DNA from: Candidatus Microgenomates bacterium
Lineage (GTDB): Bacteria; Patescibacteriota; Microgenomatia; UBA1400; PJMF01
DNA: 37,075 nt
Assembly: GCA_015486535.1 (NCBI GenBank)
Contig: WFRK01000005.1
Coordinates: forward strand, 1-37,075
Direction: 5' to 3'
The notes under the pieces were generated by a model that was given only the letters and a program-made list of their open reading frames with translations, did not search any database and was not told the DNA's origin. Shown here one piece after another: positions 29,632 through 35,930 of the stretch; position 1 is the stretch's first letter; each line of letters begins with the position of its first letter. The position numbers and the translations under genes are program-made.

Positions 29632-30846
29632 ATGGCACTGGTTAAACCAACGAACACTACATTCGCAAAAATTAAAGTCATCGGTGTCGGTGGTGGCGGT
29701 GGTAACGCTATCAATTCCATGATTGACTCTAATCAGATTAAGGGTGTTGAGTTCATTGCTCTCAATACCGACGCTCAGGCGTTATTGACCTCAAAGGCAG
29801 AAACCAAACTTCAGATTGGCAGCAATCACACAAAAGGACTTGGCTCCGGTGCCGATCCTGATATCGGTAAAGAAGCAGCGGAAGAATCCTACGATAAAAT
29901 TAAGGACTTGCTTTTCGATACCGATATGGTTTTCATCACCGCCGGTATGGGTGGTGGTACCGGTACGGGTGCTTCACCCATTATTGCTGAAATAGCGAAA
30001 GAAAGCGGTGCTCTAACAGTCGCCGTCGTCACCAAACCATTCCATTTCGAAGGGCGCAAACGGATGGATGCCGCCGAAAGTGGCATCGAAGAAATGCGAG
30101 ACAAAGTGGATACGTTGATTGTCATTCCTAATCAACGTTTAATGGAAGTCGTTGATAAAAAAATGACACTCTTAAATGCTTTCAAGTTGGCGGATAATGT
30201 TTTAGGTCAAGGCGTAAAAGGCATCTCTGATCTTATTACTGTTCCGGGACTGATCAATGTTGATTTTGCTGATGTGAAAACGATTATGGTTGATTCCGGT
30301 TCAGCTTTGATGGGTATTGGTGAAGCAAGTGGAGAAAATCGCGCCGCGACAGCGGCCCGAATGGCCGTGGCCTCACCTTTGTTGGAGGTATCAATCGATG
30401 GTGCTCAAGGCATTCTCTACAACATTATTGGCGGGCCAGACATGACAATGAATGAAGTCGCCGAGGCATCAACAATCATTGCCAATGCCGCTGCCAGTGA
30501 TGCCAATATTATTTTTGGCGCCACAATCGATGAATCAATGGGAGAGAAGCTAAAAATTTCCGTTATCGCTACTGGCTTTGATGGCATGACCTATAAATTC
30601 GGTCGAAAAAATATGTTTGGGGCCTATTCAAAAAAAGCCGCAGAGAAAGAAAAAATAGATGATACCAGTGTTACCGGTGGTCCGGCCTTAATTAATCAAA
30701 CACCGGCTGGCTTTACTCAACCAGTGACGAACGGAGCAGAACAAGTTGAAACTGAAGTGGGGCATCAAAAAACAGATCGGATCGAAAATATCGATGAGCT
30801 AGATGAAGAAGAGTTCGAAATTCCCGCCTTCATGAGACAAAAATAA
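29632..30846 (+). CDS. ftsZ: Cell division protein FtsZ
   Basis: '[15 protein letters not shown]', 'NTDAQAL', tubulin signature '[10 protein letters not shown]', 'INVDFADV' and C-terminal core 'EIPAFMR'. Confidence 0.99.
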
Positions 30847-30851
30847 AAATC

Positions 30852-31067
30852 ATGATTGATGCTGACCTACGAGATTTTTACCAAAAGATCCAAACCAAAT
30901 TGAAGAGGCAACCTAATTTTAATGTTTTTCGGGCTCTATTTTTATCCACACCGGATAAACAACAATAATTCAGACGTTTGCTGGAACAAACTTATCCTCT
31001 CTTGATCGTTCATGATCGTCCTGGAGGAATAGAAAAAATAGCTGACGGATTTTCAACTCACAAATGA
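30852..31067 (+). pseudogene. Possible small ORF interrupted by one in-frame TAA, or a 38-aa sORF
   Basis: MIDADLRDFYQKIQTKLKRQPNFNVFRALFLSTPDKQQ* (TAA 30966-68), then in frame FRRLLEQTYPLLIVHDRPGGIEKIADGFSTHK* (TGA 31065-67). Starts 5 nt after the ftsZ stop. Confidence 0.3.
30942..30950 (+). promoter_or_regulatory. Perfect DnaA-box consensus TTATCCACA
   Basis: Exact 9-mer in the ftsZ-ileS gap, embedded in the IR TTTATCC-N5-GGATAAA (30941-30959). Only one copy was noticed. Confidence 0.3.
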
Positions 31068-31094
31068 TTCGACTTGATATATAATAGCTGCGTT

Positions 31095-34000
31095 ATGCCA
31101 AAAACAGATTTGCAATTAAAAGATATTCCACCGCATCCGAATTTGCCAAAACTAGAGGAAGAGGTGCTTAAATTCTGGGACGAAACAAATGCTTTCCAGA
31201 AATCAATCGCTTTGAGAAGTAAAAAAAACCGTTATGTTTTTTATGACGGGCCACCTTTTGCTACCGGCCTGCCTCATTATGGTCACATTGTCGCCAGCAC
31301 AATCAAGGATATTATTCCGCGTTATTTTACAATGAAGGGCAAACGCGTGGAGAGAAAATGGGGCTGGGACTGCCACGGTTTACCAATCGAAAATATCGCG
31401 GAAAAAGAACTGAAAATTAAACGAAAGAAAGACATTGAAACTTTAGGTGTGGCAAAATTCAACGAAGTTTGTCGTTCCAAAGTGCTTAGCTACGTCGCTG
31501 ATTGGAAGAAGATCATTAAACGATTGGGGCGTTGGGTAGACATGGAACATGATTATAAGACGATGGATTTGACCTTCATGGAATCAGTCTGGTGGGTCTT
31601 TAAGCAGCTTTACGATCAAGGTTTAATTTACGAAGACTACCGCTCAATGCATATCTGCCCTCGCTGCGAAACGACCCTTTCACAATCGGAAGTGACCGAG
31701 GGCTATAAAGAAATTACTGATATTTCCGTCATTACCAAATTTAAGCTCTTGCAACCGAAACAAATTTTGGGTGCTAAAATAAAATCGAGAACAGTTTACG
31801 CTCTCGCTTGGACAACGACACCCTGGACTTTGCCGGGAAATGTTTTGTTGGCTGTTAATCCCAAACTTACCTATGTCATTTTTTCCGATCATGAATCAAA
31901 AAGTCTTTACCTTGCTGCCCAGGCAAGAGTCAAAGAAGTGATGGGTGATGAGCCAATCAAAATCATCACTAAAATTAAAGGTGAAGACTTGTTGGGCCTA
32001 AAATATGAGCCGCTTTTCCCCTATTTCAAAGAAACGAAACGGGCTTTCCAAATTGTTTCGGCAGACTTTGTCTCTGCTGAAGATGGCACCGGCATCGTTC
32101 ATGTTGCTCCTGCTTTTGGCGAGGACGATTTTAATCTGGGAAAACAAGTCGGTGTCCCACTTATTCATCATGTTGACGCTGAAGGAAAATTCATCGCCGC
32201 TGTGACTGATTTTGCCGGCATGAAGGTGAAACCGAAAGAAGATCCGACTAAAGCTGATGTCGAAATTATCAAATGGCTCGCAAAAAATAACAAACTCTTT
32301 GCCAAGAAAAAAATCAAACATAGTTACCCTCATTGTTGGCGCTGTGATACGCCACTGTTGAACTATGCCACCAGTAGTTACTTTGTCAGAGTTACCGCTC
32401 TAAAAGAACGGATGCTTACTTTAGCCAAAAAAATCAACTGGATGCCGCCTCACATCAAAAAAGGCCGCTGGCATAACTGGCTCAAAGGCGCTAAAGATTG
32501 GTCTATTAGCCGGCAACGCTACTGGGCAAGTGTCATTCCAATTTGGAAATGTGATCAATGCGGTCAAGAAAAAGTTTTCGGCTCAATTGCAGAAATCGAA
32601 AAGAAACTTGGTTCGTTTCTTGTCATGCGCCATGGAGAGGCGGAAAATAATATCAAGGAGATTTTATCCAGCAAACTCAATGATGGTATGCCTTTGACAA
32701 AAAAAGGGGAGACAATCGTCAAAAAATCGGCCCAGAAACTGATAAAGGAGAAAATTGATTTAATCATTTCATCTGATTTGGAAAGAGCGAAACAGACCAG
32801 TGAAATTGTTGCTCAAGCGACCGGGGCTAAAATCATTTACGATGCGCGTCTGCGAGAAATTGATGCGGGCGACTATGATGGATCAAATTACGCCCAAATA
32901 GCTGAATTTCTGAAATCTTGGGGTCAGGCAGACAAAAATGTTCATTTCCCCAATGGAGAGAGTTGGCAAACCATTCAAGCTCGGATTAAAAGTTTCTACA
33001 ATGATTTGTTTACTCAATACAAAGATCGGCATGTCTTGGTTGTTTCTCATGGTGACGTGCTTGTTGCCCTCCAAGCTCTGATAAGTCACAAAGACTTTTA
33101 CGCTACCGTCAGAGAAATACACTCTTCAGAGGGAGAATATATTGAAAAAGGTAGGCCGATGAAACTAAAATATAAATTGATCGATCTCCACAAACATGTG
33201 GTTGACACCATCACCTTCGCTTGTGATCAATGTAACGGCACGATGCATCGTGTTCCCGATGTGCTTGATACTTGGTTTGATTCTGGCTCAATGCCTTATG
33301 GTCAAGTACATTATCCCTTTGAGAATAAGGCCCAATTTGAAGCAAACTTTCCCGCTGAGTTTATTGCGGAAGGTATCGATCAGACGCGGGCTTGGTTTTA
33401 CTATCTCCACGCGATTGCTACCGGCATTAAGGATAGTAATGCGTTTCAAAATGTAATTGTGAACGGCATCGTTTTAGCGGAAGACGGTAAAAAAATGAGT
33501 AAACGTCTGAAAAATTATCCCGATCCAAGTAAATTACTTGAACAATACGGCGGTGATAGTTTGCGCCTTTATTTGGCCAGCTCACCGGTGATGAAGGCGG
33601 AAAACCTTAATTTTAGCGAGAAAGGTGTCGCGCAAGTTAGGCGGAAGGTATTTTTAATCCTTTGGAACATGTTCTCTTTTCACAAACTTTATCATCAACT
33701 TGGGTCAATGAACTTGGTTGAATTTGAAAAGTTTGAACCAACCTCAAACAATATTCTTGATCAATGGGTTATCTCTTTGACTCACTCAACTTTGAAACAA
33801 GTGACCGATCATCTTGATCATTATGATTTAGTGAAATCAAGTCGCGTGATCATCGAGTTTGTTAATCATTTGTCGACGTGGTATTTGAGACGTTCGCGCG
33901 ACCGTTTGAGAGAAAAACAAGAGGCTCAGGCTACTTTCCGTTACGTCCTCGCTCTTACCTGTCAAATGTTGGCCCCATTTGCACCCTTTATGAGTGAGCT

Positions 34001-34520
34001 CATTTTTAACAATTTGATTGATTTGCCAAAAGATAAACCGAGTATACATCATACCAATTGGCCCAAGGTGAAGGTGAAATTGATCAATGCCAAATTAGAA
34101 TCAGTCATGATAGAAATTCGTAAAGTGGCGGAAAAAACTCACGCTCTGAGAAAAGCTCATCAGGTGAAAGTAAAACAGCCTTTAGCAAAATTAACAGTCA
34201 TTTCCACTTTAAAACAACCAAGCGATCGCCTCTTGAAAGTGCTCGCTGAGGAAGTGAATGTCAAGACGATCGATTGGCAAAAAGGCGATTTACTTGAAGT
34301 GAAGTTAGATTTTAATCTCACTCCAAAATTAAAAGCGGAAGGGGAGGCGAGAGAATTAATTCGCGAGATTCAGAAATTAAGAAAAAAATCAAATTTAAAA
34401 CCGGAAGACCGGGCTCATTTCAGGGTGAGGCAAATTCCTCAAGGATGGCAACAGCAGATTGAGACACAGACACATAGTCAGATTGAGCTTGGTGATCAAC
34501 TGCAGCTGCTCAACTCATGA
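31095..34520 (+). CDS. ileS: Isoleucine--tRNA ligase, type 2 (archaeal/eukaryote-like), with an inserted histidine phosphatase domain
   Basis: 'FYDGPPFATGLPHYGH', 'GWDCHGLPIE', editing motifs 'WTTTPWTLPGN' and 'GTGIVHVAPAFGEDD', 'HSYPHCWRC', 'DWSISRQRYW', 'WFDSGSMP', 'EGIDQTRAWFY' and 'KMSKRLKNY'. Start at ATG 31095. Confidence 0.96.
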   Translation: MPKTDLQLKDIPPHPNLPKLEEEVLKFWDETNAFQKSIALRSKKNRYVFYDGPPFATGLPHYGHIVASTIKDIIPRYFTMKGKRVERKWGWDCHGLPIENIAEKELKIKRKKDIETLGVAKFNEVCRSKVLSYVADWKKIIKRLGRWVDMEHDYKTMDLTFMESVWWVFKQLYDQGLIYEDYRSMHICPRCETTLSQSEVTEGYKEITDISVITKFKLLQPKQILGAKIKSRTVYALAWTTTPWTLPGNVLLAVNPKLTYVIFSDHESKSLYLAAQARVKEVMGDEPIKIITKIKGEDLLGLKYEPLFPYFKETKRAFQIVSADFVSAEDGTGIVHVAPAFGEDDFNLGKQVGVPLIHHVDAEGKFIAAVTDFAGMKVKPKEDPTKADVEIIKWLAKNNKLFAKKKIKHSYPHCWRCDTPLLNYATSSYFVRVTALKERMLTLAKKINWMPPHIKKGRWHNWLKGAKDWSISRQRYWASVIPIWKCDQCGQEKVFGSIAEIEKKLGSFLVMRHGEAENNIKEILSSKLNDGMPLTKKGETIVKKSAQKLIKEKIDLIISSDLERAKQTSEIVAQATGAKIIYDARLREIDAGDYDGSNYAQIAEFLKSWGQADKNVHFPNGESWQTIQARIKSFYNDLFTQYKDRHVLVVSHGDVLVALQALISHKDFYATVREIHSSEGEYIEKGRPMKLKYKLIDLHKHVVDTITFACDQCNGTMHRVPDVLDTWFDSGSMPYGQVHYPFENKAQFEANFPAEFIAEGIDQTRAWFYYLHAIATGIKDSNAFQNVIVNGIVLAEDGKKMSKRLKNYPDPSKLLEQYGGDSLRLYLASSPVMKAENLNFSEKGVAQVRRKVFLILWNMFSFHKLYHQLGSMNLVEFEKFEPTSNNILDQWVISLTHSTLKQVTDHLDHYDLVKSSRVIIEFVNHLSTWYLRRSRDRLREKQEAQATFRYVLALTCQMLAPFAPFMSELIFNNLIDLPKDKPSIHHTNWPKVKVKLINAKLESVMIEIRKVAEKTHALRKAHQVKVKQPLAKLTVISTLKQPSDRLLKVLAEEVNVKTIDWQKGDLLEVKLDFNLTPKLKAEGEARELIREIQKLRKKSNLKPEDRAHFRVRQIPQGWQQQIETQTHSQIELGDQLQLLNS
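32610..33179 (+). other. In-frame histidine phosphatase (His_Phos_1/PGAM-like) domain inside IleRS
   Basis: 'FLVMRHGEAENN', 'PLTKKG', 'DLIISSDLERAKQT', 'DARLREID.GDYDG', 'PNGES...AR' and 'VLVVSHGD'. Confidence 0.9.
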
Positions 34521-35584
34521 AGAGAATCGTTATTCCCACTATTTTGGTTACCTTAGATCTCATCAGTCTATTGATCATTCATCATTTAGACTCGGCTTTA
34601 TTTGCTAAACAATTAAGTTTTGTGTTGATTAGCTTAACTCTCTTTTATCTTGTCAGTAAGATCAAACCAACGATGTTTTTTCAGCATAGTTTCTGGCTTT
34701 ACTTAGCCCTCAATTTGCTTCTTCTCTTCACGCTTTTTTTCGGTCACGGTCGCGGCACTCATCGCTGGCTTAGTGTCGCTGGCTTAACACTTCAAGCGTC
34801 CCAATTAGCCATTCCCTTGCTTGGGCTATTTCTGGCGGCATTAATTCATCACTTCACACCGATCAATTTTAAAAGTTTAATACTTATTTTGGTGACGATC
34901 GCTTTGCCTGCCGGCTTGATTTTCTTAGAACCTGATCTAGGAACGAGCCTACTATTTCTTTTCCCGGCACTGTTGCTTATTTTCGTTGCCGGGGTAAAAT
35001 CAAGTTATCTTTTTAGCCTTGGTTCTATTGTTATAGTTTTGGCATTGTTGACCTTTCCAATTTTACTCAAACCATATCAAAGAAGTCGCATTCTCAGTTT
35101 TATAAAAACAGACTCGAATGTAACTCGATCGATCAGTCCGTCAGACTACAACCGCAATCAAGCATTGATCGCCATTGGCTCTGCCGGTCTTTGGGGTAAA
35201 GGTTTGGGTAAGGGCACCCAATCTCAACTCAGGTTTTTACCGGAAAAACAAACTGATTTCATTTTTGCCAGTTTAACCGAAGAGGGCGGCTTTGCCCTTG
35301 CCCTGATGATTATTATTCTCTATGTTTTCTTAATCATCTTCTTATTAAAACAAGTAAGGTTGTCAGCTTCACCAGCCAATTTATTTATTTTCTTTGTTAC
35401 CAGTTTGTTTGCCTGGCAAATTATCATTAACCTGGGAGGTAATCTCGGCTTAATGCCGATCACCGGCCTCACTTTGCCATTCATTTCCTATGGGGGAAGT
35501 TCGATGATTAGTTTGGCTTTAAGTTTCGCTCTCGTCCAAGCGTTGATTAACGAAACTAAACCTAAATCAAAAGCGATAATTTAA
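34517..35584 (+). CDS. rodA: SEDS family rod-shape protein RodA
   Basis: 'GTHRWL', 'EPDLGTS', 'LKPYQRSRILSF', 'YNRNQALIAIGSAGLWGKG.GKGTQSQLRFLPEKQTDFIF' and 'PITGLTLPFISYGGSS'; ATGA overlap with ileS. Confidence 0.9.
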   Translation: MKRIVIPTILVTLDLISLLIIHHLDSALFAKQLSFVLISLTLFYLVSKIKPTMFFQHSFWLYLALNLLLLFTLFFGHGRGTHRWLSVAGLTLQASQLAIPLLGLFLAALIHHFTPINFKSLILILVTIALPAGLIFLEPDLGTSLLFLFPALLLIFVAGVKSSYLFSLGSIVIVLALLTFPILLKPYQRSRILSFIKTDSNVTRSISPSDYNRNQALIAIGSAGLWGKGLGKGTQSQLRFLPEKQTDFIFASLTEEGGFALALMIIILYVFLIIFLLKQVRLSASPANLFIFFVTSLFAWQIIINLGGNLGLMPITGLTLPFISYGGSSMISLALSFALVQALINETKPKSKAII

Positions 35585-35607
35585 AATTGTTAATCTTGTG
35601 TTATACT
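35580..35607 (+). promoter_or_regulatory. Putative rplU promoter (extended -10)
   Basis: TTTAAA (35580-85), N16, TATACT (35602-07) with TG at 35599-600. ATG lies 8 nt later with no SD. Confidence 0.55.
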
Positions 35608-35615
35608 ACTTATCT

Positions 35616-35930
35616 ATGTCATTCGCAATTATTCAACTTCAAGGCAAGCAATACCAAATAAGCGAAGGTGATGAACTGGTCGTTGATCATTTGGAAACTC
35701 CGGTAGGTGACAGCTTGTCTATCAGTGATGTCCTGCTTGTTAATCAAGCTAAAACAGTAAAAATCGGCACACCATTAGTAAAAAACGCTCAAGTAAAATT
35801 GACCGTTTTAGAACAAGGTAAAGGCGAAAAAATTCGTGTTGTCAAATATAAAGCAAAATCAAGATACCGTAAAGTAAGAGGGCACAGACAACATTTGACA
35901 AAGTTAAAAGTCGTCAAGATTAGTGCTTGA
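35616..35930 (+). CDS. rplU: 50S ribosomal protein L21 (bL21)
   Basis: 'FAIIQLQGKQYQISEGD', 'IGTPLV' and 'GKGEKIRVVKYKAKSRYRKVRGHRQ.LT'. Start at ATG 35616. Confidence 0.97.
   Translation: MSFAIIQLQGKQYQISEGDELVVDHLETPVGDSLSISDVLLVNQAKTVKIGTPLVKNAQVKLTVLEQGKGEKIRVVKYKAKSRYRKVRGHRQHLTKLKVVKISA

Follow-up and report, generated by a model that had tools for sequence, protein, structure and literature searches.

How does a complete histidine phosphatase come to lie between the two zinc knuckles of an isoleucyl-tRNA synthetase (IleRS), and what might it do there? The question is raised by a 37,075-nucleotide (nt) stretch of DNA from Candidatus Microgenomates bacterium (contig WFRK01000005.1 of assembly GCA_015486535.1; the whole stretch is called the window below). 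Its ileS gene (31074..34520, on the + strand, as are all features given here) encodes a type-2 IleRS of 1148 amino acids (aa), counted from a TTG codon, with a histidine phosphatase domain of the His_Phos_1 family nested at aa 514-700 (32613..33173). The explanation that we favor as a whole, with confidence that stands about even, is that this domain is a laterally exchanged phosphatase cassette, predicted to be catalytically competent and lodged in a permissive loop of the synthetase.

The guest domain was characterized with Pfam, alignment boundaries, an AlphaFold model, and Foldseek. Pfam His_Phos_1 (PF00300) matches aa 516-673 with an E value of 8.9e-36 (cut-off 21.7 bits; 123.8 bits in the full protein and 128.0 when the stretch is excised). 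In an alignment to solved IleRS structures, query residue 513 pairs with residue 493 of 9w01_B and query residue 701 with residue 495; aa 514-700 take the place of 1-3 residues in the solved eukaryotic and Thermus enzymes and of 7 residues in G401, the relative from the same genus. The linkers joining the phosphatase to IleRS are very short (2-3 residues). The AlphaFold model of the domain, made with 51 sequences, has a predicted local distance difference test score of 91.7 and a predicted template-modeling (TM) score of 0.90. With Foldseek we found 307 PDB matches at E <= 0.001, the top ones all from the histidine phosphatase family, with the riboflavin-pathway phosphatase 9mmh, PspA, Rv2419c, PhoE, and CobC as the best (E 3e-14 to 1e-12, TM 0.72-0.79, 24-28% identity). 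The NCBIfam model of CobC reaches aa 687, and beyond it and the His_Phos_1 match the rest of the insert is unmatched.

The catalytic residues were followed through an alignment of 121 insert-bearing IleRS (the window protein, its database twin, and 119 homologues), with residue numbers counted throughout from position 31074. The RHG motif (32628..32636) holds R519 and the nucleophile H520, both present in 121/121 rows, and G521, which is G in 118 and A in 3. R571, the second phosphate-binding Arg, lies in SSDLERA, which begins at aa 566 (32784..32786 for the Arg; 121/121 rows); E595, the general acid, lies in the LRE of LREI at aa 593 (32856..32858; E in 118 rows and D in 3); and H659, the second catalytic His, lies in the SHG of SHGD at aa 658 (33048..33050; 121/121 rows). 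The set is invariant again in alignment A1, which takes in stand-alone homologues. Since these residues are under selection, we take the domain, from its sequence, to be an active phospho-histidine phosphomonoesterase. Of the architecture we are nearly certain: the guest reads as a regular branch-1 histidine phosphatase, complete, which would give two active sites in one polypeptide.

A first-pass annotation of the window had already placed a complete histidine phosphatase with an intact catalytic set between the two knuckles of a type-2 IleRS, and this description stands. The strings that it quoted are all present at the positions given (RHGE at aa 519, nt 32628-32639), its insert of ~190 aa at ~32610-33179 is right within a few bases, and the conservation of the catalytic residues among homologues, on which it had let its reading depend, is borne out by the 121 rows. 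It had also argued that the insert is no intein. Consistent with this, no Hint or intein Pfam domain is found in the ileS product at E <= 0.01, nor an endonuclease domain, and the insert ends in KLKYK before LIDLHK (aa 702), without a C-terminal HN. The phosphatase is evidently kept in the mature protein.

The host, to judge from its motifs, is a regular, working type-2 IleRS for which aminoacylation of tRNA-Ile is predicted. With the TIGR00392 (ileS) model the product reaches 899.7 bits (cut-off 621.4), the match being divided in two by the insert (900.2 bits in a whole-genome scan), and Pfam orders the product as tRNA-synt_1, split around His_Phos_1, then Anticodon_1 and DUF5915. The best PDB sequence matches are IleRS structures (E 1e-208 to 1e-224). 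Because the genome (750,820 bases assembled, with completeness estimated at 96.5%) has no other IleRS, this one must still charge tRNA. Both class I signatures, which the first-pass annotation had called intact, are present and conserved among homologues: HYGH, the 'HIGH' signature, at aa 68-71 (31275..31286), with H68 kept as H in 107/121 rows and H71 in 114/121, the remaining rows having G, N or a truncation; and KMSKR, the 'KMSKS' loop, at aa 807-811 (33492..33506), with K807 and K810 in 121/121. The translation also holds WTTTPWTLPGN and DGTGIVHVAPAFGEDD, which we take to be the Thr-rich and GTG.VH editing motifs of connective peptide 1 (CP1), and aa 210-420 match isolated editing-domain structures of Thermus thermophilus (1wk8_A, E 2e-34). 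The start is probably the ATG at 31095, as the database twin P0003 has 1141 aa and is seven codons shorter at this end.

The two knuckles that embrace the insert are equally well kept. The first CDQC (C493 and C496, 32550..32561, in WKCDQCG, which starts at aa 491) is conserved in 119/121 and 118/121 rows, respectively, and the second (C717 and C720, 33222..33233, in FACDQC, which starts at aa 715) in 120/121 rows at each Cys. From the alignment offset they presumably correspond to about residues 461-464 and 502-504 of T. thermophilus IleRS. In the Thermus enzyme, the zinc motif belongs to the CP3 subdomain, which connects CP2 with the second half of the catalytic fold and lies opposite CP2 (PMC7191050).

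Many homologues share this layout, contrary to one outcome that the first-pass annotation would have taken as refuting it. All of the 120 best matches to aa 470-760 carry both PF00133 and PF00300, and the named ones are annotated as isoleucyl-tRNA synthetase or class I tRNA ligase family protein, mostly from metagenome-assembled genomes of Patescibacteria or Parcubacteria. Of 401 genomes sampled evenly across the phylum (the unpublished G150 is counted in the tallies and used nowhere else), 28, this one among them, have a match that spans the junctions at E <= 1e-30, and none of the other 27 carriers comes from the window's class, order, or family. Eighteen further long His_Phos_1 frames were examined; 15 are IleRS, 10 of which have the phosphatase twice in that one loop, and 3 are valyl-tRNA synthetases (ValRS). 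The first-pass annotation had proposed a survey of other synthetases for domains at the same site, but it missed the occurrence in ValRS as well as the recent lateral gain and the frequent turnover that we infer below. The insert is present in IleRS of at least 43/401 genomes and in ValRS of at least 3/401, and the true carrier numbers are higher, since only 150 of the 547 His_Phos_1 matches were among those listed. The three ValRS (L063 on G310:C2, L064 on G114:C1, and L067 on G304:C62) score 886, 686, and 879 bits with NF004349, and their insert occupies the loop homologous to CP3 of IleRS, after 'R[VI]PVWY' (in 2/3 frames) and before 'DTWFSSG'; the L064 ValRS has an extra insertion of ~200 aa just before the phosphatase.

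Longer or fragmentary multi-domain relatives were also scanned, and 17/17 are IleRS. The forms with a double phosphatase measure 1460-1550 aa (L057-L062, L065, L066, L068, L071, and L021; also P0084). In the domain trees their second copies form a clade of their own (support 97) apart from the first copies, which suggests, as far as the trees can tell, a second capture rather than a tandem duplication. Other decorations occur in this set: a NUDIX domain inside the CP1 region of P0056 and P0062, a C-terminal rhodanese domain in P0062, and, in the truncated IleRS fragment P0198, an IS200-like Y1 transposase domain inside CP1 together with a GNAT domain after the phosphatase. The best match of the insert in the representative library, P0141 (2848 aa), has an unusual repeat architecture in which 42 stretches match the phosphatase domain.

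How did the insert reach this lineage? Among the 40 nearest genomes (1 of the same genus, 23 of the same family, and 16 of the same order), none has His_Phos_1 in a frame longer than 417 aa, and the two IleRS halves abut wherever both are listed. The same-genus G401, whose flanks are 80-81% identical to those of the window, reads ...ELEKDSGQKVTDLHKH... where the window has ...EIEKKLG, 187 aa, and KLIDLHKH.... In a tree of the IleRS backbone, built without the insert and its flanks (aa 491-730 removed), the window protein is sister to G401 (support 100 by the Shimodaira-Hasegawa-like approximate likelihood-ratio test) within a clade of six insert-free family members (99). The insert, on the other hand, groups with those of P0004, P0005, and others in a clade of 15 rows (99), and 12 of the 14 other proteins of this insert clade sit in a separate 15-row backbone clade. 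Forcing the window backbone into that separate clade is rejected by the approximately unbiased (AU) test (p 2.5e-43). Insert and host, whose trees the first-pass annotation had suggested comparing, have different histories. Moreover, the window protein (P0001) and P0004 share 53% identity in the insert and only 58% in the backbone, an excess for the insert (z = 3.2) that 0.9% of 9591 other pairs reach. From these comparisons we infer that the insert was gained recently and laterally in this lineage.

A trace of the exchange may persist beside the insert. The flank from the insert through the second knuckle (aa 704-727, 33183..33254) is a candidate recombination tract; it is 54% identical to G401 and 73% to P0004 and P0005, and the neighboring windows are 67-100% identical to G401, which suggests that recombination replaced this piece. 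We propose that the cassette would have entered the lineage after the split from G401, probably when a foreign ileS that bore the insert recombined with the resident gene across the conserved flanks. No target-site repeats were evident when the junction codons were compared by eye with those of G401.

Some observations speak against a recent lateral gain. The insert data alone do not reject a clade of P0001 and P0117, whose backbone is the nearest one with an insert (AU p 0.176); the candidate tract lies only ~2 standard deviations out, with other windows more extreme; and the nearest known insert, at only 53% identity, is no evident donor. There is also no foreign composition, with GC 0.406 and GC3 (GC content at third codon positions) 0.39 in the insert, 0.415 and 0.419 in the backbone, and GC 0.403 in the genome. 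In an alternative, the insert is vertical with repeated losses in relatives, or else the contig is a chimera of two organisms' ileS genes; we consider this pair of possibilities the most improbable of all that we weighed. Vertical descent would fit the position of P0117, an insert-bearing IleRS that is sister to the family clade in the backbone tree (98), as well as its grouping with P0001 on insert data. However, the 7-row clade alone would then have had to lose the insert precisely on four or more separate occasions, with further losses among the 24 family members, and vertical descent leaves the insert nearer to P0004-type inserts than the backbone distance predicts.

A chimera would be easier to entertain in that only one run, X1, which may be the source sample, holds the sequence. 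Yet Logan unitigs of this run span 31000-32910 and 32974-34162, at similar depths of 45 and 64, and cross both junctions without branching, which makes chimeric assembly unlikely; the first-pass annotation had named junctions left unspanned as a sign of such an artifact, and both are bridged here by independent unitigs of one run. Two crossovers within 700 nt would also be needed, and the insert lies in frame at the very site that more than 180 other genes use. A low-depth Logan contig joins 31834 to 33272 (depth 5, with 24 bases on the shorter side); most likely this joint is another organism's class I synthetase matching two conserved stretches, and we did not use it as evidence, nor the short conserved pieces at 90-95% likeness that make up all that run X3 contains.

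The only bubble in the unitig graph lies within the insert, at a variable stretch of the phosphatase (aa 613-634, 32910..32975), where two alternative unitigs of 123 nt have depths of 36 and 15. The minor strain variant differs at 8/123 bases, which change six residues (L613R, K614Q, G617D, V623A, H624Q, and I634V) and make one silent change. The flanking unitigs of 1.9 kb and 1.2 kb have 2 and 1 differences.

The preferred explanation, lateral exchange through ileS, also has to account for the pattern across the phylum. To the similarity matches we added 80 loci found with P0004 in species-representative genomes, 29 with the insert and 51 without. On a FastTree tree of 243 IleRS backbones, the state changes 22 times, and branches with support >= 95 force at least 20 changes; because the 243 rows were picked for their likeness to the insert or to either of two query proteins, the count is a minimum for the set and not a rate. 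The clade around P0004 alone has 13 rows, of which 7 are carriers and 6 non-carriers. Two further AU tests, whose groups were named after the trees were seen, likewise reject congruence of insert and backbone (p 3e-8 and 2e-7). Exchange between ileS genes would cause this frequent gain and loss, with ileS as a conserved, always-expressed carrier and CP3 as a structurally permissive site, the phosphatase being nested at the tip of the CP3 zinc-knuckle hairpin.

Whether the domain was captured from stand-alone phosphatases more than once is a related matter. A dedicated search for stand-alone homologues gave 18 proteins, some of them on contigs shorter than 2 kb and possibly fragments. Nested and stand-alone domains interleave in the family trees, and the free domain tree has 17 changes between the two states, at least 2 of them required by well-supported branches. 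A tree constrained to unite the 36 nested domains in one clade, apart from the 91 stand-alone ones, is not rejected (AU p 0.067), so that independent captures are suggested, not shown.

Such mobility raises the thought that the insert is a selfish or neutral passenger, spreading by recombination like a non-splicing intein and persisting without host benefit as precise deletion is rare. This is very unlikely in our view. The distribution would suit it, being patchy, laterally exchanged, and always at one site of a conserved gene, as would a composition without anomaly. However, the catalytic residues are invariant in 121 rows although the inserts are only ~30-50% identical, which indicates selection on catalysis; the insert has no endonuclease or Hint domain; and losses appear frequent, which counts against a passenger that is trapped.

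What, then, might the phosphatase act upon? Our leading candidate for function, held with slightly less than even confidence, is an ordinary phosphomonoesterase whose substrate would be a small phosphorylated metabolite or a nucleotide and whose activity would not depend on aminoacylation. The best NCBIfam and fold matches overall are CobC, PspA, the archaeal cofactor-dependent phosphoglycerate mutase (dPGM), PhoE, Rv2419c, and the riboflavin-pathway phosphatase, and those relatives with known function among the nearest matches, by sequence and fold, are all metabolite phosphatases. Stand-alone His_Phos_1 copies are found in 35/40 relatives, where the motif is RHGETxWN rather than the RHGEAxxN of the insert, and the IleRS of 40/40 works without the insert. 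In this genome (G000) the sole His_Phos_1 match is the nested one, with no stand-alone copy; the spot of the stand-alone copies in G401 and G082 is syntenic, and the genes that flank it lie 46 bp apart here. The nested domain would then do the job of the relatives' stand-alone family members.

Several results weigh against so simple a role. No NCBIfam phosphatase equivalog reaches its cut-off for the insert: CobC scores 104-108 bits against 162.9, PspA 73-77 against 350, SixA 34.8 against 74.5, dPGM_arch 91-95 against 225, GpmB 77-81 against 261, and pgm_1 33-39 against 81.7. In a rough comparison that counts matches and not copy numbers, a stand-alone copy is missing from 14/46 carriers and 117/355 non-carriers; carriers are not poorer in such copies, and simple replacement is thus not a general rule. 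In addition, one family occupies the same loop of the paralogous IleRS and ValRS, at times with two copies in one protein, a hint that it is tied to aminoacylation.

Two specific housekeeping roles were considered and dropped. The insert as the only phosphoglycerate mutase of the genome was rejected: a 577-aa Metalloenzyme-family frame, probably a cofactor-independent mutase by its sequence, is present together with enolase and phosphoglycerate kinase, and the dPGM models stay below cut-off. Two enolase matches are found in this 0.75-Mb genome (G000:C51:2264-3103 and G000:C39:3018-3836), the stronger of which (E 5e-117) has a TAA within the match. Removal of pyrophosphate for aminoacylation was set aside as well. 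Family I and H+-translocating pyrophosphatases were not found in the genome, but a DHHA2 frame (family II type) is present, so the phosphatase is not needed for this purpose.

The hint from paralogous synthetases points to a phosphatase coupled to aminoacylation from CP3, which would repair or protect the charging of tRNA-Ile (and of tRNA-Val in the ValRS forms). Candidate substrates would be the CCA end of the tRNA carrying a 3'- or 2'-phosphate or a pyrophosphate, a nucleotide such as the AMP product, and a phosphorylated Ser in the enzyme's own KMSKR loop. We regard this coupling as possible but doubtful. It would explain why one family recurs at the homologous loop in IleRS and 3 ValRS, with two phosphatase domains in 10/18 further long frames and with all 17 multi-domain proteins scanned being IleRS. 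The very short linkers, the fact that carriers are not depleted in stand-alone copies, and the patchy, laterally moving genes, which are typical of conflict systems, speak in the same direction. As background, leucyl-tRNA synthetase (LeuRS) has a module at the CP3 position that contacts the acceptor arm close to the KMSKS loop. In class I synthetases the Ser of this loop is a target of HipA-type kinases, and toxic RelA-SpoT homologues add pyrophosphate to the CCA end. On the other side, we know of no histidine phosphatase family member that acts on RNA ends, the fold and sequence neighbors of the insert are metabolite phosphatases, and the IleRS of 40/40 relatives do without it. PMC7191050 places CP3 only opposite CP2. 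The bifunctional enzyme of the first-pass annotation survives as a prediction from sequence, whereas the targets that it proposed (tRNA ends, translation factors, or toxin products) are not supported.

A sharper version of the coupled role would make the domain a mobile counter-measure built into the target, a CP3 phosphatase stripping phosphates set by HipA-like kinases or RelA-SpoT-type toxins and so sparing the charging of tRNA-Ile or tRNA-Val. It would place the phosphatase next to both the KMSKS loop and the path by which the tRNA 3' end enters, and would explain the fixed site, the particular synthetases, the second copies, and the rapid gain and loss, as well as the differences between strains in the substrate lid and the lack of any tie to stand-alone housekeeping copies. 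We nevertheless rate it as unlikely. Among the PADLOC models of anti-phage defense proteins there is only a 15-bit match (E 0.005) to an unrelated one, and neither HipA_C nor RelA_SpoT domains were found in the genome; an attacker's toxin need not be encoded here, so the absence of a resident HipA is silent on foreign toxins. In PHROGs the only match is a family of unknown function, phrog_12933 (E 1.5e-28).

Alternatively, the domain could be a regulatory or sensing module, a phosphatase for a signaling molecule or a protein that is switched by the Ile-, ATP-, or tRNA-bound state of the synthetase, or a mainly structural or dimerizing element. The rigid nesting on linkers of 2-3 residues and the occurrence in two synthetases for branched-chain amino acids, IleRS and ValRS, are consistent with this, and many small members of the histidine phosphatase family are dimers. 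Frequent gain and loss fits a wired-in regulator poorly, though, and a purely structural role needs no invariant catalytic residues. A connection to (p)ppGpp was set aside, as no RelA_SpoT domain, and hence no (p)ppGpp synthetase domain, was found in the genome. We think such a role quite unlikely, a little more so than the counter-measure. A metabolite phosphatase traveling in ileS remains the function that we prefer.

The gene lies in a run on one strand. Upstream (window 29632-30846) is a protein with a tubulin-type GGGTGTG motif, FtsZ-like by reading only; downstream follow a putative multi-pass membrane protein (34517-35584), whose start overlaps the ileS stop by 4 bases, and a small basic protein (35598-35930).

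A second complete enzyme here sits within the catalytic body of an essential bacterial synthetase. The arrangement deserves study in that it is common in one large, poorly understood phylum, recurs in the matching loop of ValRS, and differs within one genus. Should its target be a tRNA end or the synthetase itself, the phosphatase would represent a new way to protect or repair translation. If it is a metabolic enzyme traveling in ileS, essential genes would carry accessory functions between lineages without intein machinery, which bears on how gene content and horizontal transfer are read in reduced genomes. Relatives that differ in carrying the insert are natural pairs for a ready-made experiment. 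Our full-text literature search, which does not reach supplements and subscription journals, found no paper describing a phosphatase nested in IleRS; the histidine phosphatase nested in CP3, its presence in ValRS too, and its presence or absence between close relatives appear to be new.

Compared with known systems, the host is conventional. It shares with T. thermophilus IleRS (PDB 1ILE) the HIGH and KMSKS motifs, the CP1 editing domain, two Cys4 zinc sites, and the C-terminal DUF5915 region, and departs from solved type-2 IleRS and from the 40 nearest relatives in having a phosphatase of 187 residues where they have 1-7 residues. The guest likewise has the RHG...R...E...H set, the size of ~190 aa, and the fold of the stand-alone CobC, PspA, PhoE, Rv2419c, and HFP 9mmh; those enzymes are free, whereas the domain here is nested in another enzyme and scores below all equivalog cut-offs. 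Extra catalytic domains in aminoacyl-tRNA synthetases have been described mostly in eukaryotes and as end-to-end fusions. A synthetase with an extra catalytic domain has already been recognized by curators in NF040702 (isoleucine--tRNA ligase, N-acetyltransferase domain-containing), but its guest is a GNAT domain that appears, from the profile coordinates, to lie in CP1 and not CP3, and the window protein scores 311.8 against a cut-off of 1999. The bifunctional RNase H/acid phosphatase of the Rv2228c type (NF005567) joins a CobC-like phosphatase to a nucleic-acid enzyme, and the insert matches its phosphatase half at 86-90 bits, below the cut-off of 326; it is an end-to-end fusion with another partner, not a nested one.

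Two further comparisons concern the site and its mobility. The leucine-specific domain of LeuRS is a small, non-catalytic module at the CP3 position, between the strand after 'ISRQR.WG.P.P.W' and the 'D.WF.SG' helix. The topological position is the same as here, where the insert is a complete second enzyme. Inteins, too, sit in frame at one fixed site of a conserved gene, are patchy and lateral, and differ between close relatives. They do so with Hint and endonuclease domains and splice residues, in contrast to the insert in this IleRS, which is without them and has enzymatic residues of its own under selection.

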